Part shown: one piece after another, positions 23,549 through 59,020 of the stretch
How the letters are laid out: every line of letters begins with the position of its first letter
Position numbering within the stretch: position 1 is the stretch's first letter
Assembly: GCA_001724245.1 (NCBI GenBank)
Contig: MEDX01000004.1
Location: 1 to 64,000 of the forward strand
DNA: 64,000 nt
Reading direction: 5' to 3'
Origin: Fonticula-like sp. SCN 57-25
Taxonomy: Eukaryota
The notes under the pieces: generated by a model
The model's input: the letters and a program-made list of their open reading frames with translations, nothing else
The model's database searches: none
What the model was told of the DNA's origin: nothing
Translations under genes and position numbers: made by a program

Positions 23549-23684
23549 GGTCTTTCCTCCCGTCCTTCCGAGGGAGAGAGAGCGCGCACTGGTCTCCCAA
23601 TCACTCCCCTGCACTCGGTCGACGCACTGTGTTGTCGCTTGCGTCACTTGTCAGATATAAAGGCACATAATTTGGAGCGAACTT

Positions 23685-25691: not shown

Positions 25692-26076
25692 TTTTTTCTT
25701 TATTTTCGCTGTTGTTCATTGTCACAATACACTTTACGCTGTTTTCATGGCTTTTCGCGCACTTTTCCTCAATCAATCGCGGTGTCATCGCTTTTGTGAT
25801 TGATAGGAAGGGACCTTGTGGGATTGACGATCGTGATTCATCAGGGTCCCTTTTCGATCGACATATGAAAAGGCGCGACTATAAAAGGCAGCGAGGCCAG
25901 TTCTTTCCTGTCGTCTGCCCGAGTGCTGACGAACGGAACGGGCGGAGAGCCTGTGAGGTTTCGGCAGTCTCGACGCGAGGCCAGGGGTTGCGCGCGCGTG
26001 TTATAGTGAGCTCGCGCTCGCGTCCTTCTGGCTTTTTCGTTCTTTTTTCTTTTGTTTCTGCGTCTAGTACGTTAAG

Positions 26077-29000
26077 ATGAAGGACTTTCCGTTCTCGACC
26101 GCGCCGATCCGCGGCGTGCGCGCGGTTCAATTCGGAATCTTGTCACCGGAGGAAATTCAAAAGATGGCTGTCTTGGAGGTGATCCACCCCGAGTCCTTTG
26201 ACATGGGAAGCAATGTTCCTAAGCGCGATGGTCTGGCGGACCCGCGCATGGGCACAACGGAGCGTGATCGCCTCTGCGCGACGTGCAACGGCTCGTACAT
26301 TGACTGCCCCGGGCACTTTGGCTACATCAAGCTCGCCAAGCCGGTGTACCACATTGGTTTTGTTGACAAGGTCTACAAGGTACTGCACAGCGTGTGCCAC
26401 AAGTGCTCGCGCCTACTCGTGCCGGATCGCAGCTCGACTGCTTTCAAGGAGGTGATGTCGATCAAGGATGGTAAATTGCGCGCCAAGCAGCTGGCTGCTC
26501 GTAATCTGATCCGCAACGACGAGTGCGTGAAGAGCGAGACGGGCATTGGCGGCTGCGGCTCCAAGCAGCCCAAGCTTCGCCGCAAAAATTACCAGATTAC
26601 GGCGCACTATTCGAGCAAGGCCGACGAGGAGGGCACGACTGTGCGCGAGGAGAGCCTCACGGCGGACAAGGCGTACGCGATCCTGCACGGCATCTCGGAC
26701 GAGGACTGCTACGCTCTCGGCTATGACCCGAAGCAGTCGCGGCCCGAGTGGATGATCATCCGCAACATGCCCGTCTGCCCGCCGCAGGTGCGCCCGAGCA
26801 TCATGCACGACTCGTCGCGCCCCAGCCAGGACGACTTGACGTACAGCTTGGGCCTCATTATCAAGGACAACATGAACCTCAAGCGCAGCGAGGCCGAGGG
26901 CCACGCGGGCCACATCGTCCAGAAGAACTACCAAATGCTGCAGTACCGCATCACGGTCTACTTTGACAACGAGGTGCCCGGCGTCCCGGTGAGCGCGCAA
27001 AAGTCTGGTCGCTCGCTCAAGTCGATCCGCCAGCGCCTAAAGGGCAAGGAAGGCCGCATTCGAGGCAACTTGATGGGTAAGCGTGTCGACTTTTCGGCGC
27101 GTACGGTTATTGGCCCCGACCCGAGCTTGTCGCTCGACCAGGTCGGCGTCCCTCGGTCGATTGCCGCCAACCTGACGTTCCCCGAGATTGTGACCGCGTT
27201 CAACATGGACCGCCTTCAGGGCCTCGTCGAGAACGGCTCGACGTACCCCGGTGTCCGCTATGTCATCCGCGACGACGGCGAGCGCATCGACCTGCGCTTT
27301 GCAAAGTCGCGCGACATTCACCTGCAGCCGGGCTACATTGTGGAGCGCCACATCATCGACGACGATCTCGTGCTTTTCAACCGCCAGCCGTCGCTGCACA
27401 AAATGTCCATGATGGGTCACCGCATCAAGGTCATGCCGTACTCGACCTTCCGCCTGAACCTGTCGGTGACGACGCCCTACAACGCCGATTTCGACGGTGA
27501 CGAAATGAATTTGCACGTGCCGCAGACGATCGAGGCGCGCACCGAGCTGTTGCAGCTTGCCATGGTCCCCACGCAGATTATCAGTCCGCAAGCCAACAAG
27601 CCCGTCATGGGTATTGTGCAGGACTCGCTGAACGGCATCAACAAGTTTACGCGCCGCGACTGCTTCCTGGACCGCAGCATGGTCATGCAGCTGCTCATGT
27701 GGCTGCCCGACTGGAACGGCATCCTCCCCGTCCCGGCCATTCTCAAGCCCAAGCCGCTGTGGACTGGCAAGCAGATCTTTTCCATGCTCATCCCGAGCGA
27801 CATTAACGTGCTGCGCCACCACGCGGCCCACAATGACGCCGAGAACACGAGCCCCTACCGCGACATTACGCCGGGTGACACGCGCGTGCTCATTGAGAAC
27901 GGCCTCCTGCTGACCGGCATGGTGTGCAAGAAGACTATTGGTTCGGCACAGGGCGGTCTCATCCACGTCATCTGCATCGAAAAGCAGCAGAACCCGCGCA
28001 TCGCCGCCGACTTTTTCACTCAAGTTCAGTACATTGTCAACAACTGGCTCCTGATCAACGGCTTTTCCGTCGGTATCGGCGACGGTATTGCCAGCATCGG
28101 CACCATGCAGCGCATCCAGGAGATCATGGACCGCAACAAGGTCAAGGTGCGCGACCTCGTCCAGCAGGCGCGCCTCGGCAACCTCGATGCGGAGAAGGGT
28201 ATGACCCTGCGCGAGTCGTTTGAGAGCGCCGTGAACACGATTCTGTCTGCCACGCGCGAGGAGGCCGGCAAGCTGGCCGCCATGTCGCTCAAGCAGGACA
28301 ACAACTTTAAGCAGATGGTGTACGCCGGCTCCAAGGGTTCGACTATCAATATTTCCCAGATCGCTGCGTGCGTCGGTCAGCAGAACGTCGAAGGCAAGCG
28401 CATTCCTTTTGGCTTCCGCGACCGCACGCTCCCGCACTTTATGAAGGACGACTTTGGCCCCGAGTCTCGCGGCTTTGTCAGTAACAGTTACCTTACCGGT
28501 CTGCTCCCGCAAGAGTTCTTCTTCCACGCCATGGGTGGTCGCGAGGGTCTTATCGATACCGCCGTGAAGACGTCCGAGACGGGTTACATCCAGCGTCGTC
28601 TCGTCAAGGGCATGGAAGACGTGATTGTGCGCTACGACGGCACGGTCCGCAACTCGGTCGGCGAGGTGGTCCAGTTCCTCTACGGCGAGGACGGCCTCAA
28701 CGGCGGCTTTATCGAGCAGCAAAAGGTGGAGCTCATGTCGCTCAACAATGCACGCTTTGAGCGCCGCTACCGCATCGACATGGACCCGACCAAGCCGACG
28801 TACCTCTTTTCGGACCGCTCGACGGTCGTCACGCCGTCGGTCATCAAGCTCGTCTCGGCCAACTTTGCCGAGGTGCAGCGCGCGGTCGAGGCCGAGTTTG
28901 CCCAGATCGTCGAGGACCGCCGCGTGCTCCGCGAGGAGATTTACCTCAAGCTGCGCGGTGACGTTGCGTACCTGCCCGTCAACCTCGACCGCCTCATCTG

Positions 29001-31386
29001 GACCGCGCAGACGATGCACCGCCTCGACAAGCGCCGCCCGTCCAACCTCTACCCGCTCAACATTATCAAGAGCGTGCAGCAGCTGCTGGAGCGCGTCGTG
29101 GTCGTGCCCGGCACGGACGCCATGTCGGTCACCGCGAACGAGGATGCCACGCTTTTCTTCAAGATTCACGTGCGCGCCAGTCTCTCGGTGAAGCGCGTCC
29201 TGGAAGAGTTCCGCCTGGACGACCGCGCTTTTGCTTGGGTGGTCGCGCAGATTGAGAGCCGCTTTATCCAGTCGCTGTGCTACCCCGGCGAGACGGTCGG
29301 CACCATTGCCGCTCAGTCGATCGGTGAGCCCGCCACGCAGATGACGCTCAACACCTTCCACAGCGCCGGTATCGGTGCCAAGAACGTGACGCTCGGTGTG
29401 CCTCGTCTCAAGGAGTTGATCAACGTGGCAAAGACCATCAAGACGCCCTCGCTGACCGTGTACCTCAAGCCCGAGTTTGCGCAGGATCTCAACCGCGCCA
29501 AGAGCGTGCAGGCTTCGATTGAGCACGCGACGCTGCGCAAGGTGACGGCAATGAGCGAGATTTACTTTGACCCGGACCCGTTTAACACGGTGATCGAGGA
29601 GGACCAGTACTTTGTGCAGACCTTTATGGAGTTTGAGCACTCTGACCTGGACCGCGAGTCGGTGTCGCCGTGGATGCTGCGCCTTACGCTCGACCGCAAG
29701 ATGATGCTCGACAAGTCGCTTACAATGCACGACATTGCCAAGCGCCTCAAGGAAGAGTATGGCAGTGCGGTGCTTTGCGTCTTCAACGACGACAACGCCA
29801 AGGACCTTGTGTTCCGCATCCGCCTGGTCGGCGACGTCGGGGGCAAGGACGACGACATGGACGAGTCTGGCGATGTCAAGCTGCGCCAGATGGAGTCCGC
29901 TATGCTCAGCGGCCTGACGCTGCAGGGCGTGCAGGGCATCCAGCGTGTCAAGATTGACAGCGACGCGCCGTGGCGCTTTGATGAAGTTTCTGGCGGTCTT
30001 GTGAACGACAAGGAGCGCTTCAAGGAGAACTTTTTGCGCACATCGGGCACCAACTACCGCACGGTGCTCTGCCACGAGAGCGTCGACCACGCTCGTACCA
30101 TCTCCAACAGCGTCACCGAGACGCTCGAGGTGCTCGGCATTGAGGCGGCGCGCCTCGCCCTTCTGCGCGAGATCAAGGTGGTTATTGAGTTTGACGGTAA
30201 CTATGTCAACTACCGCCACTTGGCGCTGCTCTGCGACGTCATGACGTACAAGGGCATCCTCATGTCGATCACGCGCCACGGCATCAACCGCAACTCGACC
30301 GGCCCGCTCATGCGCTGCTCGTTTGAGGAGACGGTCGAGATCCTGCTCGAGGCCGCCGCCTTTGCCGAGACGGACCAGATGAAGGGCGTGTCGGAGAACA
30401 TCATGCTCGGCCAGCTGGCGCCGCTCGGAACGGGTCAGTTTGACCTTCTCCTCGACGACGGCGCGGTCGAGCACGCCATGGCCATCGACCTCTCTGCCGG
30501 AATGCACCACCAGATGGACATGAACTATTACGCAGAGGGAGGAATGACGCCGCGCAAGTTTGACGCGTTCTCGCCAGTGTACAGTCAGCACTCGCCCGTG
30601 CGCAAGAACCTCAGCTTCTCGCCCGCGTACGTCGGCTCGGCAACGCCGCGCGTCGGCAACTTGTCGCCGTCGTATTCGCCTACGAGCCCGTCATACTCGC
30701 CTACGAGCCCGTCGTACTCGCCCACGAGCCCGTCTTATTCGCCGACGTCGCCTTCGTACTCGCCGACGTCGCCGTCATATTCACCGACGTCACCCTCGTA
30801 CTCGCCGACGTCGCCGTCGTACTCGCCGACGTCGCCTTCCTATTCACCGACGTCGCCGGCCTACTCGCCGACAAGCCCGTCGTACTCGCCGACGAGCCCG
30901 TCATATTCGCCCACGAGCCCTTCGTACTCGCCGACGTCACCTTCGTACTCTCCTACGAGCCCGTCGTACTCGCCGACAAGTCCGTCGTACTCGCCGACGT
31001 CGCCTTCGTACTCCCCTACAAGCCCGTCGTACTCGCCGACGAGCCCGTCCTATTCACCGACGTCGCCTTCGTACTCGCCGACGTCGCCCTCGTACTCACC
31101 CACGAGCCCGTCGTACTCGCCGACGTCACCTTCGTACTCGCCGACGAGCCCGTCCTATTCGCCGACGAGCCCGACGTACTCGCCGACATCGCCGACGTAC
31201 TCGCCTACGAGCCCGACATACTCGCCGACGAGCCCGACGTACTCGCCGACGTCCCCGACATACTCGCCGACGTCCCCGACGTACTCGCCGACGTCGCCTT
31301 CGTACTCACCGGCGGCGTCCGGATACACCGCGCATTCCCCTTCTTACGCCCCTGATCCGGCCAAGAAGAACCAGAAGCGCACCTGA
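26077..31386 (+). CDS. RPB1: RNA polymerase II largest subunit, intronless
   Basis: CPGHFG, GKRVDFSAR, YNADFDGDEMN, QMTLNTFH, and a YSPTSPS CTD. Confidence 0.99.
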   Translation: MKDFPFSTAPIRGVRAVQFGILSPEEIQKMAVLEVIHPESFDMGSNVPKRDGLADPRMGTTERDRLCATCNGSYIDCPGHFGYIKLAKPVYHIGFVDKVYKVLHSVCHKCSRLLVPDRSSTAFKEVMSIKDGKLRAKQLAARNLIRNDECVKSETGIGGCGSKQPKLRRKNYQITAHYSSKADEEGTTVREESLTADKAYAILHGISDEDCYALGYDPKQSRPEWMIIRNMPVCPPQVRPSIMHDSSRPSQDDLTYSLGLIIKDNMNLKRSEAEGHAGHIVQKNYQMLQYRITVYFDNEVPGVPVSAQKSGRSLKSIRQRLKGKEGRIRGNLMGKRVDFSARTVIGPDPSLSLDQVGVPRSIAANLTFPEIVTAFNMDRLQGLVENGSTYPGVRYVIRDDGERIDLRFAKSRDIHLQPGYIVERHIIDDDLVLFNRQPSLHKMSMMGHRIKVMPYSTFRLNLSVTTPYNADFDGDEMNLHVPQTIEARTELLQLAMVPTQIISPQANKPVMGIVQDSLNGINKFTRRDCFLDRSMVMQLLMWLPDWNGILPVPAILKPKPLWTGKQIFSMLIPSDINVLRHHAAHNDAENTSPYRDITPGDTRVLIENGLLLTGMVCKKTIGSAQGGLIHVICIEKQQNPRIAADFFTQVQYIVNNWLLINGFSVGIGDGIASIGTMQRIQEIMDRNKVKVRDLVQQARLGNLDAEKGMTLRESFESAVNTILSATREEAGKLAAMSLKQDNNFKQMVYAGSKGSTINISQIAACVGQQNVEGKRIPFGFRDRTLPHFMKDDFGPESRGFVSNSYLTGLLPQEFFFHAMGGREGLIDTAVKTSETGYIQRRLVKGMEDVIVRYDGTVRNSVGEVVQFLYGEDGLNGGFIEQQKVELMSLNNARFERRYRIDMDPTKPTYLFSDRSTVVTPSVIKLVSANFAEVQRAVEAEFAQIVEDRRVLREEIYLKLRGDVAYLPVNLDRLIWTAQTMHRLDKRRPSNLYPLNIIKSVQQLLERVVVVPGTDAMSVTANEDATLFFKIHVRASLSVKRVLEEFRLDDRAFAWVVAQIESRFIQSLCYPGETVGTIAAQSIGEPATQMTLNTFHSAGIGAKNVTLGVPRLKELINVAKTIKTPSLTVYLKPEFAQDLNRAKSVQASIEHATLRKVTAMSEIYFDPDPFNTVIEEDQYFVQTFMEFEHSDLDRESVSPWMLRLTLDRKMMLDKSLTMHDIAKRLKEEYGSAVLCVFNDDNAKDLVFRIRLVGDVGGKDDDMDESGDVKLRQMESAMLSGLTLQGVQGIQRVKIDSDAPWRFDEVSGGLVNDKERFKENFLRTSGTNYRTVLCHESVDHARTISNSVTETLEVLGIEAARLALLREIKVVIEFDGNYVNYRHLALLCDVMTYKGILMSITRHGINRNSTGPLMRCSFEETVEILLEAAAFAETDQMKGVSENIMLGQLAPLGTGQFDLLLDDGAVEHAMAIDLSAGMHHQMDMNYYAEGGMTPRKFDAFSPVYSQHSPVRKNLSFSPAYVGSATPRVGNLSPSYSPTSPSYSPTSPSYSPTSPSYSPTSPSYSPTSPSYSPTSPSYSPTSPSYSPTSPSYSPTSPAYSPTSPSYSPTSPSYSPTSPSYSPTSPSYSPTSPSYSPTSPSYSPTSPSYSPTSPSYSPTSPSYSPTSPSYSPTSPSYSPTSPSYSPTSPSYSPTSPSYSPTSPTYSPTSPTYSPTSPTYSPTSPTYSPTSPTYSPTSPTYSPTSPSYSPAASGYTAHSPSYAPDPAKKNQKRT
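30673..31302 (+). repeat. RPB1 CTD, 30 tandem heptads (21-nt period)
   Basis: 630 nt = 30 heptads: 23 YSPTSPS, 1 YSPTSPA and 6 consecutive distal YSPTSPT. Confidence 0.95.
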
Positions 31387-31712
31387 GCCGCTATGGGCTA
31401 GGAATCAAAAGCAAAAAAAGCAAGCCGCAGGCCAACAGATTACCCTGTAGTTGTATACTATCATTTCCTTTTCATAATTTTGAAAAACAACAATAACAAA
31501 GCAATGTATGTACGTCTCTTCTTTCCGCTTCTTTCAGACAGTTTTCGTAGGAGGCTAAGGCGTCATCTTACGGTTCTTTGCGAATTCACGACCAATTGCT
31601 GAAATGATGAGTCATCATTGCGATTTCCGTGGTTGTGATTGGACGGCGGGCCGTTTTGGCGGGCTTGGTTTGGCGTCATTGTCGCGTTGCGGGTAGGTTG
31701 AAAGAGTAGGCG

Positions 31713-33504: not shown

Positions 33505-33952
33505 TATTATTTTGTATCATTATTTCATGTACCACGCAATCCATATCAATGACCAGCGAAGTGCTTCCTTTGACTGCGACGCAGAGCGGCGTGGATCATT
33601 CTACTTTGTACTTTGCTCCATGTTGGCTGAAATGGCCGCGGCCCGGCACTTGATGACCATGAACGCTTCTACACATTTCCTTGGAATAATCACGGTGTTC
33701 GGGTTCATGATCATGGAGCGCGGCGGGTGCGCGACCATTTTTTAATTAAAATCTTTGTAATCCCCGAACAAATCGAACAAAACCCGATCGGCTCATTAAT
33801 CCCGAGTTGACGTATCGATCGCTCCTTTTTAGGAAAGCGTCTGATTCATGGAGGGGAGTGATTGGCTGGCCGATAGTTGTTCAGGTGATTGTAGCACTCG
33901 TCGTGCTCTCTTTCTTCTTGAGCAGACCGAAAGCCCGCACGCGGTCATCACG

Positions 33953-35268
33953 ATGGAGGGAGTTACGCCTACAATGTATCCCTTTGGGATGTCGTGCAAG
34001 GAGTTTACCGGAGCGAACGAGGGCGTTTCCTTCTCGCAGTTCTATTTCATCTCTACAGCCTGCAAGTCTGATCACTTTGTCCTGAGCATCACATGGGCTT
34101 TCATCATTGTTGACTTGATCGCGGTGCGCAGCCATTTTTTGTCCACTCGATCTCATGGCGCGGCCACTGACTCTTTTCGTCATGCAGCTTGTCTTTACAT
34201 TAGCGATGTTTCTCCATACCGTAGTCGGGGCCAACAGGATTACGGTTCCTGGGCGCATCTCCTTGTACTCTTCCCTCGCTTTGGCCTGTACGTCCTTTGC
34301 CTTTCCTTTAATATAGCTAACGCCTGCCCCCTAGCGCGTGTCGTCGGTTTGCTCCTCACGCTGTATGCGGTCGCGTCGCCGATTCGGATGTTCTTCATGA
34401 CGCTTCCCCTTATTTTCACCTTTGTGTCAGGAAGCGTCCTCGAGTTCAACTGGCTCAAGGTGATGGCGCGCACTGACTGGAGCCGTATTGTGGGCCCGGG
34501 TGTGAAGCGGGATATGTTCAAAACGTCTATGATTCTTTGCTGCGTTGTCTTCTCCGTCGTTCTTACCGGAGCCTGGGCGATTGCTCCTCCGATTCTTCGC
34601 GCGCTGGGCTACTCCGCCCACGACATCAACATTTCAGTGTGGGTCGGGTTTGTTTGGATCGCTCTCTCGGTTTGGATCTTCCTTTGCCTTACCGTCATGT
34701 CGATTCGCAAGCTCGTTGGCGGGCTCTCGGGTATGGTTCATCACGCGGAAACTAGCGGCACCGGTGAGGTGCCGGACGCGGTCCTCTCGTTGCTGAAAAA
34801 GGTACGCAGGCGGCTTTTCTTTGTGTTGTTTTACCTCAAATTACATGTGCTCACATGTGTGTCCCGCAGATCAAGCTTGGCGGCTGGATGCTTGGAGCGG
34901 TTCTCGTCGTTGCTGGCTTGTCCATGACGGCGCTGGTCGTTAACGTTGTTCTCCAGGACTTTGACGCCGAGAATACGCTACTGTGGATTTACTTTGGCAT
35001 GGTGATGGCCGAGATTCTGGGGAATGTTGCTTTTGTCTACATGGGCGTTCGCCGCCGCGCTCAGTTTATCAGCACGTCGACGGGCGGCTCGACCGACATC
35101 AAGAGCAAAACGGCGCCGGGCAGCAAGAAGGGAACGCATACCGGCATCTCAAAGAACAACACCGAGCTGTCGGAGCTCGCGACGATGGACGACTACCTTA
35201 CAAAGACGAAGGAGATGCAGACCGAGTGGAATGACATGACCAACAACGCCTTTGCCTCGCCGGTGTAA
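33953..35268 (+). CDS. 7TM GPCR-like orphan protein, paralogue 1; 4 exons
   Basis: Seven hydrophobic segments after splicing three GT-AG introns; clear homology to copies 2-5. Confidence 0.8.
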
Positions 35269-35972
35269 GGAGCGGCGTGATCGTCCGTCTCGCTTCTGCA
35301 TTTCGCAATTTTGAACATATCGAATTTTATTTATACGCCAGCGTCCAGCGCAATGCCTTTCTCGACCATCTTAAGACCTCGAGCAAGCCGCCTTTTGAGT
35401 GCCGCGGCGCTTATCTTTCGCCACAAACATTCACCCGACCTACGTCTTTTCAAGCTAAATTTTGGTATTTTGTTGTATCAGTACCACATCACATTGATCT
35501 ATTACGAATGATGAATGAGCGCTGCCCTTTTGACGTAACGCGAATGCGGTATGAAATATAGACTTTTGCATCCACTCTCCCAATATGAAGGAAACTTTTC
35601 GAGCATACACAGATGATACGCGCAAAGGCGATGACCGCCGCCGGCCCTTTTTGACCACGTGGCATCGTAGTGCGTTCGGCTGGCTGCGTGATTTGCCCAA
35701 GGCTTCTGCGCGCGTACCGTGGAGGCAGGGGGAATCGAGGGGCGACCGCCCCGACCTGTGACCACCAAGGCGACCACCGACGGCGTCCCATACGAATCCA
35801 GGGTGGATTCGAACGTGGGGCAATCGGAGCTCCATTCCGTTTGGTCGCAATCTGTCGTTTTCTATTTAAAGACAATTTCTTGGGCGGTGATTGGATGCTC
35901 ACCGGGAACGCAATCGTTACGAGGCGTGCCACGCCGGGGAAAGAGACGAGCGAAAGACCGCAACCGCTGGCG

Positions 35973-37297
35973 ATGGGCGAGCCCACGCCGACGTTGTATC
36001 CCTATGGGATGCCCTGTAAGGAGTTTACAGGAGCAAACGAGGGCGTCTCCTTTACGCAGTTCTATTTCATCTCTTCAACCTGCGAGCCCGACGTGTTCAT
36101 CTTGGGCATCACCTGGGCGTTTATTTGCTTTGCCTCTCTCGGGGTGCGCAACAATTCTCCGTCCGTCCTGAACGCGCGCAGAGACTGACTTGTTTTGTCA
36201 TGTAGTTTCTCTACACATTCGCAATGCTCGTCCATACAATGGTCGCGTCCAAGAAGATGACGGTGCCGGCGCGGGTCGCATTGTACGCGTCCGTCAGTCT
36301 GTCCTGTGCGCGATTCACACTTTCTTCTTTCCTCACCTTCTCTTACGGCCAACTAACGGACGCCATTTAGCGCGTGTTCTTGGTTTGCTCCTCACGCTGT
36401 ACGCGGTCGCGACGCCGATCCGGATGTACTTTATGGCAACTCCTATGATTTTCTTGATTGTGTCTGGAAGCGTGCTCGAGTTCAACTGGCTCAAGGTGAT
36501 GTCGCGCAAGGACTGGAGCCGCGTCGATGGTACTAGGGGTCTCCAGATGGACTGGTTCAAGATATCTATTTTCACTTTTTGTCTTGGCTTTTGCGTTGGT
36601 CTTCTCGGCGCCTGGGCGATAGCTGTGCCAATTCTTCGCGAGTCGGGCGCCTCCGTGCGCACCATCAACATTGCAGTCTGGGCCGGCTTTGTGTGGCTTA
36701 CTGTGTGGTTGTGGATCTTCCTTGGTCTTTCCATTATTTCGCTTCGCAAGCTCAGCGACGGGCTGTCGGATTTGGTCCATCGCGCGGAAACGAGCGGGAC
36801 TGGCGACGCGCCGGACGCCATCGTCTCATTGCTGCGCAAGGTACGCAGGCGGTTTTTCTCTATGTTGTTTTGCTTGTGCTCATTTATGTGTTGCACAGCT
36901 TAAGATTGGCGGCTGGCTACTTTTCATCATGGTTACCATTTCTTCATTGTCCCTGACTGGAATGGTCGTCGTTGTTGCTATGAAAGACTTCAACGCCGAT
37001 TATACGTTGTTGTGGATTTACTTTGGCTTGATCTTTGGAGAGATTCCGGCAAATGTTGCCTTCGTCTACATGGGCGTTCGCCGCCGCGCTCAGTTTACCA
37101 GCACGAGCTCGAGCGGCTCGACCGACGCCAAGAGCAAGACGGCGCCGGGCAGCACAAAGGGGACGCATACGGGCATCTCAAAGAACAATACCGAGCTGTC
37201 GGAGCTCGCGACGATGGACGACTACCTCTCAAAGGCAAAGGAGATTCAGTCAGAGTGGAACGAGATGACCAACCAAGCTTCTGTCCCGCCGGCGTGA
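35973..37297 (+). CDS. 7TM GPCR-like orphan protein, paralogue 2
   Basis: MGEPTPTLYPYGMPCKEFTG..LEFNWLKVM..ELATMDDYL; same three introns. Confidence 0.8.
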
Positions 37298-38006
37298 GCA
37301 GCAACTCCATCGTTTCGCTACATTCTCATGATTTGCAGTAATTTTCAAACCTCCTTTTTGTCTTTGACGCCTGCGTCGCTTGTTTTTCTTCAGCGACGGT
37401 CATGACCTTAAGCTAGAAACGTTTCAGCTGCGCAGCGTCTCAATGTCGCCATATAACGCACCGGACCTACTTTTTTGAATCTAATTTTTGGTATTTTGTT
37501 GTATCAGTACCACTTCACAGTATCTATGGCAAAGATGAGTGAAGTGCTACTCTTTAAAGCAACGCGAATGCGGTATGGCATATGATATGAATATATATTT
37601 TATCGACTCTATGGAACCGATAGTACCAGCTCGTGGCCCACCACTTTGTGGCACTGGCCGCTGCCTGGCCGCTGCCGGCGTTCCTTTGACCACCTGGCGA
37701 TGTAATGCGTTTGGTTTACCGCTTGGTTAGCCCACAGCTTCTGCGCGCTTACCGGGGGGCTAGGGAAATCGAGTGGCGACCATCGGGTGGCGACCACCGA
37801 ACGTCGACCACCCCAGGACCACCTTTTCAATCGAGGGCTGGGACAATCGGCGCTCCTCGCGATCAGACGGTGTTCTTTTATTAGAAAGTGATAGGGCTGT
37901 GATTGGACGATGTACTAGGGAACGCGATCGTATTGGTCGCTCGCGACCGATGCCGCACGGCCGCGGCGGCCACGCACAAGAGTGAAAGACTGCTGGCCGC
38001 CTGGCG

Positions 38007-39338
38007 ATGGGCGACCTTACGCCGACGTTGTATCCCTTTGGGATGCCCTGTAAGGAGTTTACAGGAGCAAACGAGGGCGTTTCGTTCACGCAGTTCTACT
38101 TCATCTCTTCAACCTGCAAAAGCGACACGCTCCTCCTGGGCGTCGCCTGGGCGTTCATTTGCTTCGCCTTACTCGGGGTGCGCAACGATTCTCCGTACGC
38201 TCTTTTGGCGCGGTGTCTAATTTTTGTGTCTCATAGTTGCTCTACACATGCGCAATGCTCATCCATACTATGGTCGCGTCCAAGAGGATGACGGTGCCGG
38301 CGCGGGTCGCCTTGTACGCGTCCATCAGTTTGGCCTGTGCGCATTTTACCTCCGCCACTTTCTTTTTGCTGTTCGCTAACGGTGGCCCCTAGCGCGTGTT
38401 ATCGGTTTACTCCTTACGCTTTATTCGGTCGGGACGCGGATTCGGATGTACTTTATGTCGGCTCCTCTTATTTTCATGGTCATAGCCGGAAGCGTCCTCG
38501 AGTTCAACTGGCTCAAGGTGATGTCGCGCACCGACTGGAGCCGCGTCGAAGGCACCAGGCGCCTTTCGTGGGACTGGTACAAGACGACTCTTATGTTTTT
38601 TTGTTTTGGCTTTTCCACTGGTCTCATCGGCGCCTGGGCGATTGCGGTGCCAGTTCTCCGCGAGACGGGCGCCTCCGCCCGCAGCATCAACATTTCAGTC
38701 TGGGTCGGGTTTGTTTGGCTCACCGTATGGTTGTGGATCTTCCTTGGTCTTTCCATTGTTTCGCTTCGCAAGCTTGCTGACGGGCTTTCGGGTATGGTCC
38801 ATCACGCGCAAACTAGCGGCACCGGTGAAGTGCCTGACGCGGTCGTCGCACTGCTGCGTAAGGTACGCGATGGCGGGAGCGCCTTTCCCGTATGCCATTG
38901 TCGTTTTGCCTGTGCTCACATTCATGTCTTGCGCAGATTAAGATTGGCGGCTGGGTGCTTTTCATCATAGTTACCTTTGCTTCCTTGTCCCTGACTGGAA
39001 TGGTTCTTGTTGTTGCTGTCAGAGACTTCAAAGCCGAGAATACCTTGATGTGGATTTACTTTGGCATGGTGATGGTTGAGATTGCGGCAAACATTGCTTT
39101 TGTCTACATGGGTGTTCGCCGCCGCTCCCAGTTTATCAGCACGCAGTCGTACGGCTCGACTGACGCCAAGAGCAAAACGGCGCCGGGCAGCAAAAAGGGG
39201 ACGCAGTCGGGCAACGTGACAAAGAACAATACTGAGTTGTCGGAGCTCGCGACGATGGACGACTACCTCTCAAAGGCAAAGGAGATACAGTCAGAGTGGA
39301 ACGAGATGACCAACAAAGCTTTTGTCCCATCGGCGTGA
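38007..39338 (+). CDS. 7TM GPCR-like orphan protein, paralogue 3
   Basis: Same motifs and intron positions; frame intact. Confidence 0.8.
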
Positions 39339-40040
39339 GCAGCGCCTCCTTCGTTTCCCTACCTTCTCCCACTTTCGAATTTTTGTGCACACATTTTCCT
39401 TCCACACGTCTGCGCCGATACGTTTTTCAGCGACCTTCAAGACCTCGAGCAAGAAACCTTTCTATTGCGCAGAGTCTCACTATCGCCATAAAACGCACCG
39501 GGCCGACTTTTTTGAATCTAAATTTTCGTATTTTTATGTATCAGTACCACTTCACGGTATCTCAAGCAATGATGAATGAAGCGCTGCTTTTTGTTGGCAA
39601 CGCGAATGCGGTATGGCATACGATAGTTTTGAATACATTTTTCATCAGCTCTTTTATCCATGGATATGATAGTACCAGTACATACCAGCCCGCGGCTCAC
39701 CACTTTATGGCAATGGCCGCTGCCGGCATTCCTTTGACCACGTGGCGGGCGCCATTCATTCAGCTTTTTTACAGCTTTGGTTGCCCATGGCTTCTGCGCG
39801 TGTCCATAGAGGCAGGGGAAATCGAGCGCCGACCAGAGAGGTGACCACCTCTGCCCCCCCCCGAACGTCGACCACCTTGGAATGGCAGATTGATTGAAAA
39901 TGGCGCAATCGGAGCTCCTTCCGTTTCGTCGCGATCTGACTTTTTCCTTTATTTAGAATATTTCCAAGGCGGTGATTGGTGCTCGTTAAATTGCCATCGG
40001 GAACGCGATCGTGATGTTGGTCGTTTCCCATTATCGCTCG

Positions 40041-40070
40041 GCTGCAAAGAGCTGCAAAGAGCTGCAAAGA
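40041..40070 (+). repeat. (GCTGCAAAGA)x3 just upstream of paralogue 4
   Basis: Three exact 10-nt units. Confidence 0.9.
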
Positions 40071-40080
40071 CCTCAGGGCG

Positions 40081-41391
40081 ATGGGGGAACCTACGCCGAC
40101 GATGTATCCCTTTGGGATGGCCTGCAAGGAGTTTTCTGGGGTTATCAACGGTACTTCCTTCACGCAGTTCTACTTCGTCTCTGCTGGCTGCAAGCCTGAC
40201 CAGATCATCTTGATTGTCTCCTGGGCATTCACTACCATAGCCTTGATGGGGGTGCGCAACGATTCTCCATACGCCCTGAACGCGCGCATAAACTGACTTG
40301 CTTTGTCATGTAGTTTGTCTACACATTTTCAATGCTCATCCACACTTTGGTCGCGTCCAAGAGGATGACGGTGCCGGCGCGGGTCGCCTTGTACGCGTCC
40401 ATCAGTTTGGCCTGTGCGCTTTTACCTCCACCGCTGTCTTTTTGCTCCTGGCTAATAGTGCACCACAGCGCGTGTTATTGGTTTGCTCCTCACGCTGTAC
40501 GCGGTCGCAACGCCGATCCGGATGTACTTTATGACGGCTCCTATTGTTTTCATGATCGTATCTGGAAGCGTCCTCGAGTTCAACTGGCTCAAGGTCATGT
40601 CGCGCACTGACTGGAGCCGCGTCGAGGGCACCAGGCGTCTCCAGTGGGACTGGTACAAGACGACTCTGATCTTTTTTTGCATTGCCTTTTGCACTGGTCT
40701 CCTAGGCGCTTGGGCGATTGCGGTGCCGATTCTCCGTGAGATGGGCGCCCCCGCCCGCAGCCTCAATATTACAGTTTGGGCCGGGTTTGCTTGGCTCGCT
40801 GTGTGGTTCTGGATTTTCCTTGGCCTTTCCGTTGTTTCACTTCGCAAGCTTAGCATCGGGCTGTCGAATATGGTTCATCACGCGGAAACCAGCGGCACCG
40901 GTGAAGCGCCTGACGCGGTCGTTTCATTGCTGCGCAAGGTACGCAGGCAGCTCTCTTTGTGCCGTTTTGCCTCTGCTCAATCTTGCGGCTCATAGATTAA
41001 AATCGGCGGCTGGGTGCTCTTCATTATAGTTTCCATTGTTGCCTTGTCTCTGACCGGAATGGTCATTGTTGTCGCTCTCAGCGACTTTGACACTGAGAAT
41101 ACGATGCTGTGGATTTACTTTGGCTTGGTGGTGGGTGAGATGCTGGCGAATATTGCCTTTGTCTACATGGGCGTTCGCCGCCGCTCCCAGTTTACCAGCA
41201 CGCATTCGCGAGGCTCGACCGATATTAAGAGTAAGACGGCGCCGGGCAGCAACAGCAAGAATGAAACGCAGACTGGCGTTTCTAAGGACAACACGGAGCT
41301 GTCGGAGCTTGCGACGATGGACGACTACCTTACCAAGACTAAGGAGATGCAGACGGAATGGAATACAATGACCAGAAATGCCTTTGTCTAG
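40081..41391 (+). CDS. 7TM GPCR-like orphan protein, paralogue 4
   Basis: Same motifs and intron positions; frame intact. Confidence 0.8.
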
Positions 41392-42267
41392 CAGCGACGC
41401 CATCATTCTCTTTGCTTCAGCGCCACGTTAATATGCCCATATCATTGCTTTACCTTGCTCTGATTTTGCCTGCGCTTAGCGCTGTTTATTTCATGTCGAG
41501 GTTCAAGGTCTCGAGCTGGCCGTCTTTTTGCGCTACGCCTTTAATCGTCTCGCAAGCAGGGCTTGTACTTTTTCTTTTTCTAATACTTTTTGTATCGGTT
41601 GTTCTAAATGTAAGATAAATGTCTATTTCGAGTGATCACACGTAACGAGGCTATGGCATTTTTTCTATAGCTCTCCGCCCGTATGTAACAATTATGGGCG
41701 ACCGCGACACTATGAGCGTGACTATGGTGGCAGCACGGCATCTCACGACAGCACCGCACCTCATGACCACACAGCATTGCTACCAAATTCAAAGAGTACA
41801 TTTTTCTCTCTTTCGGCATTGTGCGGAGCGCAGTCAAGCAAAGAGTCCAAATATCTTTTAAACGATTGCTGTTTGATGGGTCTCGAAGGGCGGTTCGGGC
41901 GGGGCCGGCCGGCGCTGCTGCCGCCAACAGGAATTGCGTAGTGTGTAAGCTTAGCTGCTTCGCAACATACAGCGCTCATTAAAATTTACAATAGACGTTT
42001 CGTTATCCACGCCCTTGCCCGTCGGGGGCACTGGCCTCCTCAGAAACGATTGACACGGGCCATGCGCGCCGTCATTATTGCACCGCTGATCCGCGGCGGG
42101 GAAATGAGAATCACGCAGACCAAGTGGTGCCACTCACTGCTATGTACGGGAACGCTTCCTTGATGCGGGTGTTCTGGGCGCGGACAAATACGAGCCCGGC
42201 GGCCTTTTCAACAGGTTTCCATTTCGCAGGCCGGCGGGCCCGCGGGCAGCAGCCAGCAGGCTGGAGA

Positions 42268-42316
42268 GCTGGAATCAGGCTGGAATCAGGCAAGAATCAG
42301 GAAAGAATCAGGCTGG
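42268..42316 (+). repeat. Short 11-nt tandem repeat (xxxGAATCAGG)x4
   Basis: gctggaatcaggctggaatcaggcaagaatcaggaaagaatcagg. Confidence 0.8.
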
Positions 42317-42859
42317 GACTGTCAAAATCGCATGCGATTACGCATGCAGGGCATAGATGAGCGTAGAACTCCCTTAGCCCCAGGTTTTTGCCAACAGCTT
42401 TGTCGAATGAATAATATGCAAAACTCTTCGTACTGTAAAGCATGATACGGTATGGGTATCTTTGATACTGCGCGAAGTTTTCAGCGACGCTAGGCCAGAG
42501 GGCGGTGCAAGAGGGGGTGAATAGGGGGCTAAGGGGGGCGTTCAAAATCTTGCGTGGTCGTTCGGAGTGTTCGGAAGCTGGTTCGAGAAGCACGGAAAAT
42601 TACGGCGGTTGAGTCGCGACCTGCTAAATTTCTCCGTATAGACAACCTCGATTGAATAAGTGGTAATCGGAGCCCTTTATCACCGATTTGTATTTGCCAA
42701 ACCGAACGGATTTTTCCTTTTTTGGAAAATAGCATACCACGATAAGGTTGTGATTGGCTGTCACTTATCAGGGTTCGTAGTTTTTTCACAAAGTGTGACC
42801 TTGGCACTGTCAGTTTGACACGTCTCCCTTACCCCGTCCCCCGAGGATCTCCGAGCGCG

Positions 42860-44156
42860 ATGGACGAGCCTACGCCTACGATGTATCCCTTTGGGATGTC
42901 CTGCAAGGAGTTTACTGGCGAAAACGGCGGCGTTTCCTTTTCGCAGTTCTATTTCATCTCCACAGGCTGCAAGGAAGACTCGTTCGTTTTGAGCATCACT
43001 TGGGCGTTCATTATCATTGCCTTGGTCGGGGTGCGCGGCAATTCTCTGTCTGATGCCGCGGTGGCTGACTTTCTTCGTCGCATAGCTTGTCTTTACATTA
43101 GCGATGCTCTTCCATACGCTGGTTACGACCAAGCGGATGGCGGTGCCGGCGCGCGTCGCCACCTACGCTTCCGTCAGTTTGGCCTGTGCGTGCTTTACCT
43201 TTCCTTTTATAGAGCTAATGCCTGCATTTTAGCGCGTGTTGTCGGCCTACTCCTTACGCTGTATGCGGTCGCGACACCAATTCGAATGTACTTTATGACC
43301 GCTCCTCTTATTTTCATGATCGTGGCGGGATGCGTTCTCGAGTTCAACTGGCTCAAGGTAATGTCGCGGACGGACTGGAGCCGTGTCGAGGGCACCAAGC
43401 GTCTTCAGTGGAACTGGTACAAGACGGGTCTCATCGCTTTCTGCGTTGTATTCTCCGTCGGACTCATGGCAACCTGGGCGATCGCCGCGCCAGTTCTCCG
43501 TGCGATGGGCGCCTCCCCCCGCACCATCAACATTGCAGTTTGGGCAGGGTTTGTGTGGTTCACCATATGGATATGGGTCTTCTTTGCTCTTTCCGTCGTT
43601 TCGCTTCGCAAGCTTAGCCGCCGGCTTTCGGAAATGGTTCATCGTGCGGAAACGAGCGGCACGGGTGAGGCGCCAGACGCGGTCGTCACTTTGCTGCAGA
43701 AGGTATACAGCTGCTCTCATTATGTTGTTTTGTCTGTGCTCATTATGTGTTGCACAGCTCAAGGTTGGCGGCTGGGTGCTCGGCGTTTTTATCTTTATTG
43801 CTGCGTTGTCAATGTCAGGATTGGTCGCTTCCCTAGCAGTGCACGACTTCAACACCCACAATACGTTGATGTGGATTTACTTTGGCATGGTGTTGGGCGA
43901 GATTGCGGCCAATGTTGCTTTTGTCTACATGGGCGTTCGCCGCCGTTCCCAGTTCACCAGTACGCAGTCGCGCGGCTCGACCGACATCAAGAGCAAGACG
44001 GCGCCGGGCAGCAAAATGGGAACGCAGACAGGCATCTCAAAGAACAACACGGAGCTGTCGGAGCTTGCGACGATGGACGACTACCTTACCAAGACGAAAG
44101 AGATGCAGTCCGAGTGGAATGAGGTGACCAATAACGCCTTTGTCCCGCCGGTATGA
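42860..44156 (+). CDS. 7TM GPCR-like orphan protein, paralogue 5
   Basis: MDEPTPTMYPFGMSCKEFTG..; same three introns. Confidence 0.8.
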
Positions 44157-48593: not shown

Positions 48594-49866
48594 ATGTCTG
48601 GGGCCGAGCTTGCGTACAGCCCCGACTGCCCGGTGTTCACCGGCGGGCTCACGGCCAAGGGTTACTACACTGACATTTACTTGTTCGTGAACGATGGATG
48701 CGTGCCGTCCTTGGCGTTCTTCGCGGTGGGCGGGCTCAACTTTTGCTTGAACGTTGCGGTGGTGCGTAGCGCGGCTGGCAGCACCTCTTTTCGTGTTGCT
48801 GACTGGGGATGGCCTGCAGGCGATCTCCACTTTCATCATGTTCTGGCACCTGTTTAGCAGGACGAAGAAGGTCACGGCCGCCTCGCGCATCGTCCTCTTC
48901 GCGTTTATTGCTTCAATCAGTTGCGTTGCCCTTTTTTTTTGGACGTGTGCTGACCGCCGGCCAATGTTTTGTAGTGGTGGTCATTTCTTGCATTCTGTTT
49001 TTGATGGCGCCGCAGGCCGAGATTCGCCTCTTCATTTACGGGATGGCCATGTTCTTCACCATCGCCACCGGCGTCGCCAAGAACCTCACGTGGCTGCGCG
49101 TTGTCGGCTCGACCGCGCTCACTTCTAAGCGTTCGCGCCGCGGCTTCACCGCCAAGTATAAGGTCCTCCGCTGGAAGTCGCACGTTTTCCTCGGCATCTT
49201 TTTCGTCGGCCTCCAGGCGACCTGGACCTTTGCCCCGCTCTACCTCGCCGCCGGCAATGTTGTTGGGTACAACACTTCGATCGCCGCTGGCCACATCATC
49301 GTCGGCTTCTTTGCGCTGGCCATGTGTTTGTTCAGTCACTACTCGACCCGCATGTTTATGAAGTGCCTCGAGGAGGTGGTCAATGGGCCGGGCAGCAACA
49401 AGCCTGATGCGATCCCAAAGGTGCTGCATAAGGTACGCTTTTCTTTATGGGCTACTCTGCTTTTGAAGCTCACACGCGCGCGCGACAGGTGAAGAAGACC
49501 TTTTGGATCACCAGCATCGCGCTCTTCACCGGGTTCGTCGCCGCGACCGGTATTGGAATCTGGGTGCTGGTCTCGCCGGGCACGCTGACGCCGTACGCCG
49601 GTCTAACGTCGGTTACCTGGTCCTCTCTTGTCATCGCTGGCTGCGTTTTCACCTTCTCCTATGTGGTCGCCCGCAACCCCGACGACCACAAGACCATCAA
49701 CACGTCCAGCGAGGGCGATTCGTCGTCGACGCCGTCCAAGCTCAAGACGACAGTCAAGTCGACCAGTCACGAGCTCTCGTCCGTCAACGCCACGATCACG
49801 GAAACCGCCACGGACGAAATGGACGCATACCTCGAGGCCTCGCGGTCGTTCAAGGAGGAAGTTTAA
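48594..49866 (+). CDS. Diverged sixth member of the 7TM family
   Basis: N-terminal CPVFTG..GC, seven hydrophobic segments, PDAI..VLHK| intron, EMDAYL tail; three introns at equivalent positions and phases. Confidence 0.7.
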
Positions 49867-57247: not shown

Positions 57248-57381
57248 GCTCGCCTCGGTTGAATTTGGCGCCAAAAGCGAAGGCGTCGACAAGGCCGTGT
57301 CACTTTGTATCTGATTAGATTTGAGCGCCTATTCGAGAGGGGTCCAAGTGGTCTTTTGACAACAGGCCCAGGAGAGTGTTG

Positions 57382-59020
57382 ATGGAGCCGTACGTGCTGT
57401 CGTTCTGGCTGCTTGCCGCGATCTGCGCAGTTCAAACGTTTTCATTACGGCATGTCATTTTCTCCTCGTCGTCGTCTTCGGAGCAGGCTCCTTCCCCCGC
57501 CTTTTACAAGTTCAGGCGAGTGTATCTCGTGGCGTTCCTCCTGGCGATGGGCGGCGACTGGCTGCAGGGGCCGTACGTGTACGCCCTCTATCAGCAGTAC
57601 GGCTTTACGCAGAGCGACATTGCTCTTCTCTTTGTCACCGGCTTTCTTTCGAGCGCGTTTTTCGGAACACTCTTCGGATCAGTGGCCGATACGCTGTGCG
57701 CCGCCCTCTCGTTTGTTGTTGTTGTTGACACATGGATTGTGCAGGGGTCGCCGCCGCCTCTCGGTCGCGTGCTGCCTTGTGTACGGCCTGTCGTGCCTGA
57801 CCAAGCTGTCCACTTCCTTTGGCGTGCTTTTGTTTGGCCGCCTGTTGGCGGGCATCGCGACCTCCCTACTTTTCTCGGTCTTTGAGTCGTGGTTTGTCTG
57901 CGAGCACTCGCAGCAGGGTCCGCCGATCTCTCGCCTCCCTCTTGCCGTTAGCAACACGCGCTTATGCTCTCAGTAGGCTTTAGTTCCAGTCTCCTGGCAC
58001 AGACCTTTGGCTTGCAGACGTGGGGAAATGGCGTCGTGTCGATCGTGTCGGGCATCGTGGCCAACTTTAGCGCCGACGCCTTTGGCCTGGTCGCGCCTTT
58101 TATGCTCGCCTTTGTTTGCTTTGCCCTCTGCGGCCTCGTCGTGTCGCTCACATGGGGCGAGAATTACGGCGAGGTGTCGTCAAAAGTGCGCTTTGTCTAT
58201 TTCGTTCGTAAAGCTCAACTACTTTGTCGCAGGAGTCGCCGCTCCAGTCCCTTCGCACTGGCTTCCAGTTGATGCTCAAGGGTGCGCTGCCATGTTTCCT
58301 TGCCACATTTACTGACATGCTGCTCTGCAGAGTGGCGCATTGCCGCGCTTGGCCTGACACAGTCCCTCTTTGAGAGCGCCATGTACTGCTTTGTCTTTAT
58401 CTGGACGCCCGCCCTTCAGCGCGGCCACGGTACGGCTCTTCCTCGTCCTTGGGAATCGGCCGCTAAATAAGTATACCCCTCAGGTGTTGAGCACGCGCTC
58501 CCCTTTGGCTGGATCTTTGCGTCGTTCATGGTGGCCGTCATGATTGGCTCGGTCCTCTTCCAGGCGGCCATCAGCCGTCGCGCACCCGAGCACATTGCGC
58601 GCGTGTGCTACGGCTTTGCCAGTCTGTGCCTCTTTGCGCCCATCTTTTCCGACAGCGCCATGTTTTCCTTCTTTTGCTTTGTCATGTTTGAGGTCTGCTG
58701 CGGCGTCCACTTTCCGCTCATCAGCACGCTGCGCTCGCGGCATATCCCCGAGCAGGCGCGCGCAAGTCTCATGAACATTTACCGCATTCCAATGAACGTC
58801 ATCGTCGCAACCGTGCTCGTCAATGTGCGCAGTGTAATTTAAATTCGCTTTGTGACTAATTATGGCGATTTTTTCTTTTTGTTTTTCCCCCATAAAGGTT
58901 GCCAGCATTCCGCTCGCTATTGTCTTTACGGTATGCGGCGCGCTGCTCATGCTGTGCGCGTTCCTTTCCTCGACGCTGCAGCCGCCGCCGGAGCCCGTCC
59001 GCACACTGAACGTTGTCTAA
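57382..59020 (+). CDS. MFSD5: MFS molybdate-anion transporter family protein
   Basis: YLVAFLLAMGGDWLQGPYVYALY, GRLLAGIATSLLFSVFESW, SLFESAMYCFVFIWTP, RASLMNIYRIPMN. Confidence 0.92.

Follow-up and report, generated by a model that had tools for sequence, protein, structure and literature searches.

What kind of protein is encoded by the five similar genes that follow one another on the forward strand of contig MEDX01000004.1 of Fonticula-like sp. SCN 57-25 (GenBank assembly GCA_001724245.1)? We analyzed positions 1 to 64,000 of this contig, and this whole stretch of 64,000 nt is referred to below as the window. An earlier note, made from the letters of the sequence, had described the genes (here U1 to U5) as an intact tandem array of orphan seven-transmembrane (7TM) proteins resembling G-protein-coupled receptors (GPCRs). 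Our analysis suggests, with a probability of about one in two, that they are clustered, selectively maintained orphan 7TM genes encoding a GPCR-like receptor or scaffold whose cytoplasmic face would recruit a cytosolic partner. The core of this reading is well supported by sequence comparison, which indicates that U1 to U5 and a distant sixth paralog, U6, make up a real, selected, and lineage-restricted 7TM family with the N terminus outside and the C terminus inside. The six proteins look receptor-like, and their family membership, ligand binding, and G-protein coupling are putative.

Repeat finding revealed five direct-repeat units at 33953-44156 on the plus strand, with a spacing of 2,020 to 2,076 nt and, for the last copy, of 2,756 to 2,779 nt. 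Gene models scripted from the DNA gave each unit an ATG, three GT..AG introns of 47 to 74 nt with CTGAC-, CTAAC-, or CTAAT-like branch sites, and a stop codon. Each model starts with an ATG at exactly the coordinates of the earlier note, and the note's account of five tandem units of ~2 kb, each with three equivalent introns and a product of ~380 amino acids (aa), was reproduced. U1 (378 aa) lies at 33953..35268, with exons at 33953-34123, 34188-34287, 34335-34801, and 34870-35268; U2 (379 aa) lies at 35973..37297, with exons at 35973-36143, 36206-36305, 36371-36840, and 36899-37297; and U3 (380 aa) lies at 38007..39338, with exons at 38007-38177, 38237-38336, 38393-38862, and 38937-39338. U4 (378 aa) occupies 40081..41391 (exons 40081-40251, 40314-40413, 40469-40938, and 40996-41391) and U5 (379 aa) occupies 42860..44156 (exons 42860-43030, 43086-43185, 43233-43702, and 43758-44156), all on the plus strand.

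In each of the five genes, exon 1 is 171 nt and exon 2 is 100 nt long. Exon 3 is 467 nt in U1 and 470 nt in U2, U3, U4, and U5, and exon 4 is 399 nt in U1, U2, and U5, 402 nt in U3, and 396 nt in U4. From U1 to U5, intron 1 measures 64, 62, 59, 62, and 55 nt, intron 2 measures 47, 65, 56, 55, and 47 nt, and intron 3 measures 68, 58, 74, 57, and 55 nt; the 57-nt intron 3 of U4 is in frame and carries a terminal TAG. Exon indels among the copies occur only in multiples of three, and 15/15 introns have retained their splice sites and phase. Exon lengths keep the frame and intron lengths have drifted, mostly not by threes, a contrast among the copies that speaks for the splice model. The five models are free of frameshifts and internal stop codons, in agreement with the claim that the genes are intact. 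Among sequencing runs, only DNA runs of the metagenome type contain the stretch, and no RNA run does. No predicted-intron junction was found among small contigs from four of the DNA runs, in which related strains appeared at 85 to 99% likeness.

Several further observations concern the array itself. Between 34 and 44 kb the GC content is 0.52 to 0.54, compared with ~0.59 to 0.64 in the flanks, and the plus strand is T-rich (AT skew, −0.16 to −0.20). The spacer between U4 and U5 (41392-42859; 1,468 nt) is about twice as long as the other spacers and has no similarity to them. It contains small tandem repeats, such as the 11-nt GCTGGAATCAG repeated 4.5 times at 42268-42316, and nothing in it was recognizable as a decayed unit. 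In one DNA run, a contig joins 34429 (in U1) to 40564 (in U4), skipping 6,134 nt; the joint sits in a 32-nt stretch common to U1 and U4 in the region encoding LEFNWLKV. Two explanations are possible: a collapse of the assembly at a 31-mer repeat, and a copy number variant arising via unequal crossing-over.

The five copies bear the mark of purifying selection. The ratio of nonsynonymous to synonymous divergence (dN/dS; Nei-Gojobori method) was 0.28 to 0.42 at a dS of 0.31 to 0.59 for all 10 pairs of U1 to U5. Mean pairwise nucleotide identity was 0.79 in the coding sequence, 0.60 to 0.73 in the introns, and 0.50 in the 300-nt flanks. In the part encoding the C-terminal tail, dS was normal (0.47) and dN was low (0.115), indicating that the tail is kept by selection and not by gene conversion. 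Amid flanks that are only ~50% identical, the 8-mer GTGATTGG, an inverted CCAAT-like box, precedes 5/5 of the tandem ATGs at a distance of 86 to 110 nt. It is found on the plus strand at 33858..33865 (95 nt 5′ of the U1 ATG), 35887..35894 (86 nt 5′ of that of U2), 37899..37906 (108 nt, U3), 39972..39979 (109 nt, U4), and 42750..42757 (110 nt, U5). The window contains nine copies of the 8-mer versus 1.9 expected, a number reached in 0/100 shuffles. Low dN/dS, coding identity above that of the flanks, and the shared box together argue for working genes, as far as can be judged from the DNA. The remaining copies of the box lie at 5136 and 31635 on the plus strand and at 23597 and 50255 on the minus strand. 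The copy at 31635 is directly 5′ of an NCA2-like open reading frame (ORF), and the box therefore may be a general promoter element of the organism.

The family proved to be larger than the array. When the models were searched against the whole window with tblastn, a further, distant similarity emerged at 48980-49450 (expectation value [E], 2.6e-7; 27% identity in 169 aa), and a gene, U6, was modeled around it at 48594..49866 on the plus strand, with exons at 48594-48761, 48820-48919, 48975-49432, and 49489-49866. U6 encodes 367 aa and has its introns at the same three positions as U1 to U5, and its exon 2 likewise measures exactly 100 nt. The gene lies 4.4 kb 3′ of the array, past a coatomer-alpha gene, and its product is 22 to 24% identical to those of U1 to U5. 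The description of a five-gene array thus stands for the units themselves and falls short for the family. A family hidden Markov model (HMM) was also compared with the ORFs of the window in all six frames; it matched only U1 to U6, and no seventh copy was found. Common to all six proteins are two N-terminal Cys residues, an IR turn between transmembrane helix 2 (TM2) and TM3, a WL[KR]V sequence closing TM3, and two further motifs, PDA[IV]..[LV]L.K.K of the TM5-TM6 loop (loop 5) and ATxxMDxYL of the tail. U6 lacks the N..AFVY-MGVRRR found at the end of TM7 in the others.

Within the array, pairwise protein identity ranges from 63.8 to 76.5%, and U1 is the most divergent copy (64 to 69% identity to the others). 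The tree obtained was (U6,(U1,U5,(U4,(U2,U3)))), in which U2 and U3 are sisters with support of 99/98. GC content at third codon positions (GC3) is 0.70 to 0.72 in U1 to U5, 0.83 in U6, and 0.84 to 0.86 in the RPB1 and coatomer-alpha genes of the window; in this respect U6, unlike the tandem copies, resembles housekeeping genes. A multiexon MFS_5 (molybdate-anion-transporter-like) gene at 57325-58842 was considered as a further relative and rejected as unrelated, its tblastn matches to the 7TM models being at chance level (E, 0.39 to 0.97).

A 19-residue hydropathy scan revealed seven hydrophobic segments. In 6/6 proteins, Lys plus Arg residues number 11 to 17 in loops 1, 3, and 5 versus 2 to 8 in the N terminus and loops 2, 4, and 6, and the tail of U1 to U5, which is 62 to 73 residues long, opens with RRR. 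The charge bias and the RRR start of the tail place the N terminus outside and the C terminus inside. This topology, derived from hydropathy and the positive-inside rule, is the 7TM, N-out arrangement that had been proposed. Also as proposed, the N terminus has no hydrophobic signal peptide, the first hydrophobic stretch beginning at about residue 40, and the tail is rich in Ser and Thr (26 to 31% of its residues). The alignment of U1 to U5 contained every motif listed in the earlier note, namely Cys15 and Cys37 (CKEF[TS]G...C), LEFNWLKVM, VH[HR]A[EQ]TSGTG[ED][AV]PDA, and N[VI]AFVYMGVRRR. TM2 and TM3 form a single 54-residue hydrophobic run, which is broken at a TPIR turn in an AlphaFold model of exon 3 and unbroken in a poorer first model. 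The TM6-TM7 loop is nine residues long in all six proteins, and the outer TM4-TM5 loop carries N-glycosylation sequons in 3/5 tandem copies and in U6. Polar or charged residues occur in TM2, TM3, and TM7, including an Arg in TM2 and a Glu in TM7 of U1 to U5.

Conservation was then compared across this topology. Mean pairwise identity and dN/dS were 0.76 and 0.29 for the cytoplasmic parts, 0.66 and 0.37 for the helices, and 0.69 and 0.40 for the outer parts. The best-kept segments (0.76 to 0.80) are TM2 (0.80), TM3 (0.77), TM7 (0.76), the tiny TM2-TM3 turn, and the tail, and the most variable (0.52 to 0.59) are TM1, TM4, TM6, and the TM6-TM7 loop. The statement that the cytoplasmic parts are nearly invariant while TM4 to TM7 and the outer loops differ was therefore too strong; TM7 is well kept and TM1 is variable. 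Regional dN/dS was below 1 everywhere except in the outer TM4-TM5 loop, where a value of 1.03 was obtained over only 13 codons. When the seven helices were taken together, conservation was equal in their outer and inner halves (0.66 versus 0.65; Mann-Whitney P = 0.77), although the inner half was better kept than the outer in TM3 (0.88 versus 0.64) and TM7 (0.82 versus 0.67). The equality of the two halves leaves at best a faint case for what the earlier note had proposed, a shared coupling face and diversified ligand pockets, and the most variable helices, TM1, TM4, and TM6, do not fit it either.

No recognized family claimed the proteins, as had been suspected. Pfam was searched with 10 exon translations of U1 to U5, U1 exon 1, the unspliced U1 ORF, a U4 exon 3-4 read-through, and three U6 exons. 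These queries are exons or read-throughs, not full-length spliced proteins, and very weak matches are hidden by the HMMER filters; with this scope, no family reached its cutoff with any query. The top rows were noise: Na_H_antiport_1 (E, 0.013), Tetraspanin (E, 0.015), 7tm_7 (E, 0.042; 1/10 exon queries, 13.6 bits versus a cutoff of 26.6), and EBP (E, 0.073). A sequence profile search of the PDB gave no relative (best E, 0.43). When 1.84 billion cluster representatives were searched exhaustively by HMMER with an exon 3 profile, three matches were obtained, two of which were the window's own unspliced ORFs. The third, P0003, is a 165-aa fragment from a 1.6-kb contig (E, 7.8e-4; hhalign probability, 77%) that belongs to no Pfam family and carries no protein name. 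In word-indexed searches for longer proteins, U4 exon 3 confirmed 1/1,488 candidates, which was the window's own unspliced ORF; P0003 confirmed 0/1,254 candidates, and U6 exon 3 confirmed 0/550. In a language-model atlas queried with exon 3, 8/30 neighbors fell in THH1_TOM1-3 (PF06454) clusters and 2/30 in GPR137_N (PF27607) clusters, with scores of 0.90 to 0.93.

Among metagenome contigs, 0/229 pattern matches to exon 3 were confirmed. For exon 4, 2/117 were confirmed, and both derive from the same array and the same organism. The 224 residues read from one of them (L001, positions 1 to 1627) are identical to U4; the other (L002, positions 1 to 1652) shares 99% identity with exon 4 of U2 and 93 to 100% with the initial three exon segments of U3. 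Since these short contigs of another metagenome carry the U1-U5 array, the organism recurs in more than one sample. No matches were confirmed among prokaryote genome contigs (0/64) or viral contigs (0/70). To judge from these database searches, the family appears to be undescribed; that it seems unique is due largely to its lineage, which is unsampled and represented only by metagenome contigs.

One of the closest known systems is the THH1/TOM1/TOM3-GPR137 group. Its members likewise consist of seven helices and ~300 to 400 aa with no extra domains and have a noncytosolic N terminus, which in U1 to U6 is assigned by hydropathy and charge. They are usually low copy, in contrast to the five-fold tandem array, and to our knowledge neither an N-terminal Cys pair nor a C-terminal ATxxMDxYL helix is a feature of the group. 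TOM1 is reported to copurify with the small GTPase ARL8 (PMC3234234), and, according to a choanoflagellate survey, mTORC1 translocation to lysosomes is controlled by GPR137 (10.1101/2025.04.15.649019). A conserved cytoplasmic face would be in keeping with the way in which members of the group act at endomembranes, together with small GTPases or mTORC1. The available portion of PMC10576174 provided no residue motifs of the TOM1 family for comparison.

Class A GPCRs share with U1 to U6 the N-out/C-in arrangement of seven helices, a long TM5-TM6 loop, and a Ser/Thr-rich tail. Their hallmarks are DRY at the end of TM3, NPxxY in TM7, CWxP in TM6, and a Cys in the TM4-TM5 loop. All are absent here: TM3 ends with LEFNWLKVM, TM7 contains N[VI]AFVY (U1 to U5) or TFSYVV (U6), and TM6 lacks CWxP. 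The disulfide from TM3 to the TM4-TM5 loop is also missing, and that loop contains a Cys in 0/6 proteins. No GPCR model of Pfam was matched to its cutoff by the exon queries of U1 to U5 or by U6. Fungal GPCRs have been sorted into 17 classes, according to a survey (PMC12842992).

Three other 7TM types were considered and rejected. Against a microbial rhodopsin, TM7 contains no Lys or Arg in U1 to U5, the single such residue of U6 is a boundary Arg (SYVVAR) and not a Lys, and the Bac_rhodopsin Pfam model was unmatched. Insect-type gustatory and odorant receptors (7tm_7), which are seven-helix ion channels, have the N terminus inside and a very short outer C terminus; in U1 to U6 the charge bias sets the N terminus outside, the tail of 62 to 73 residues is inside, and 7tm_7 stayed below threshold. 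The internal 3+1+3 repeat of PQ-loop and SWEET proteins was not detected. An apparent internal duplication, seen when MAFFT set TM6-TM7 on TM4-TM5, was rejected, since comparisons of the helix hairpins gave a shuffle z of at most 2.03 in 12 tests and an hhalign probability of at most 0.2% for all three hairpin pairs. A parallel in kind is offered by the choanoflagellate RSF ("Remi-sans-famille") family and by unclassified fungal 7TM clusters, which are likewise lineage restricted and 7TM only, with absent or weak links to THH1/TOM1. The choanoflagellate survey, which names several new families, describes an extra short helix, NxLQxxMNxL, between TM6 and TM7 of RSF proteins (10.1101/2025.04.15.649019). 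U1 to U6 differ in having a nine-residue TM6-TM7 loop without this sequence.

In the reading that we prefer, in which the genes encode a receptor or scaffold that recruits a cytosolic partner, the 38-residue outer N terminus with its two invariant Cys residues would form a small disulfide-stabilized cap. The acting surface would be the cytoplasmic face. To it belong WL[KR]V, at the basic end of TM3; PDA[IV]..L.K.K, in the distal TM5-TM6 loop; and ATxxMDxYL, an acidic C-terminal helix preceded by a linker rich in Ser and Thr. This face is singled out because its features persist in all six proteins, including U6 with its 23% identity. It would most likely recruit a cytosolic partner, comparable to the small GTPases with which receptor-like or scaffold proteins of the THH1/TOM1/GPR137 type interact.

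Several points weigh against this proposal. Partner recruitment is deduced purely from conservation, and the gene models are built on DNA. Tandem expansion is more typical of environment-facing receptors and transporters than of low-copy proteins such as GPR137 and TOM1. The comparison with TOM1 and GPR137 that had been suggested found a weak resemblance in the language-model atlas, and no counterpart in profile HMMs: PF06454 and PF27607 were unmatched by all Pfam queries even at E values up to 10. The atlas recognition value of 2145 is below the tool's mark of 2300, which makes these neighbors weak evidence. The structure models leave the fold unassigned. AlphaFold2 was run on two chains, both of which lack TM1 and the first part of TM2. 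The first, from U4, joined exon 3, the in-frame 57-nt intron (with X at the TAG), and exon 4 and used a 10-row alignment; the second was exon 3 alone with seven rows. Their predicted local distance difference test (pLDDT) scores were only 44.7 and 59.8, respectively. Foldseek returned 0 matches at an E value of ≤0.001, and fold searches gave only generic helical matches, the best VIA-align Z score of 9.6 being under the tool's mark for helical models.

Could the genes instead encode lineage-specific G-protein-coupled chemoreceptors of the cell surface, with one coupling face and differing ligand pockets? The N-out/C-in topology, the long TM5-TM6 loop, the Ser/Thr-rich tail, and the tandem expansion would all suit such receptors, as would the better-kept inner halves of TM3 and TM7, the sequons of the TM4-TM5 loop, and the elevated dN/dS of that loop, though this covers few codons. 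We nonetheless consider this explanation unlikely, given that outer and inner halves do not differ over the seven helices, that variability peaks in TM1, TM4, and TM6, and that DRY, NPxxY, CWxP, and the TM4-TM5 loop Cys are all missing. U6 also lacks the N..Y and RRR with which TM7 ends in the others, and among GPCR models of Pfam the best showing was the subthreshold 7tm_7 match. Sensory G-protein coupling is possible, and nothing specific in the sequences points to it. A bolder version, which we regard as speculative and improbable, is that the proteins represent an undescribed eukaryotic 7TM receptor class from a poorly sampled lineage, a class that has expanded in tandem for sensing and that signals through the PDA..L.K.K of loop 5 and the C-terminal helix in place of GPCR motifs.

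Tandem expansion, which is common among transporters, would also be accounted for if the genes encoded a transporter, a channel, or a protein that handles lipids, with seven helices as in PQ-loop, SWEET, or OST-alpha/TMEM184 proteins. The polar or charged residues in the best-kept helices, TM2, TM3, and TM7, would suit such a protein. The Pfam noise included membrane families of this sort (Na_H_antiport_1 and EBP). This explanation seems improbable to us, since no transporter family reached its Pfam cutoff, an internal repeat of the PQ-loop/SWEET type is absent, and the best-kept parts outside the membrane are the long cytoplasmic loop and the 70-residue tail, which suggests protein contacts. 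It is very improbable that some copies are untranscribed recent duplicates or are decaying and open by chance. In favor of this are the finding of no RNA run that contains the stretch and the GC3 of U1 to U5, which is below that of U6, RPB1, and coatomer alpha. However, all five frames have stayed open over a dS of 0.31 to 0.59 with low dN/dS, all 15 introns are intact, exon indels keep to multiples of three, and the promoter box GTGATTGG precedes every copy.

The window is nuclear eukaryotic DNA. Besides the 7TM genes, it encodes RPB1 with C-terminal domain (CTD) repeats, a protein kinase, ATG13, NCA2, a GATA factor, coatomer alpha, a DnaJ/TPR protein, and the MFS_5 transporter mentioned above. 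The RPB1 gene is a single open frame of 1,772 codons at 26068-31386. Its product scored ~2,265 to 2,276 bits against PDB chains of 1,970 to 1,984 residues and 2,052, 2,028, and 1,953 bits against three others; from the entry codes, we take the former to be mammalian and the latter to be from Schizosaccharomyces, Komagataella, and Saccharomyces, respectively. The higher scores against the presumed mammalian than against the yeast chains indicate that the host probably is not an ascomycete. An open frame at 16096-17859 encodes enoyl-CoA hydratase and 3-hydroxyacyl-CoA dehydrogenase as a fusion, presumably the layout of the type 1 multifunctional beta-oxidation enzyme (animals, plants, and bacteria) and not the Fox2 type of higher fungi.

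The wider lesson of this locus is modest, as fungi and protists have many 7TM families that belong to no class; in the fungal survey, which covered 1,357 fungi, 141,666 proteins with seven predicted helices remained unclassified, in 1,969 clusters (PMC12842992). Provided that the proteins are produced and take part in signaling, they would constitute a new receptor-like 7TM family with cytoplasmic motifs of its own, and the six paralogs, with ~23% identity at the deepest split, would be material for finding the partner of an orphan 7TM protein.

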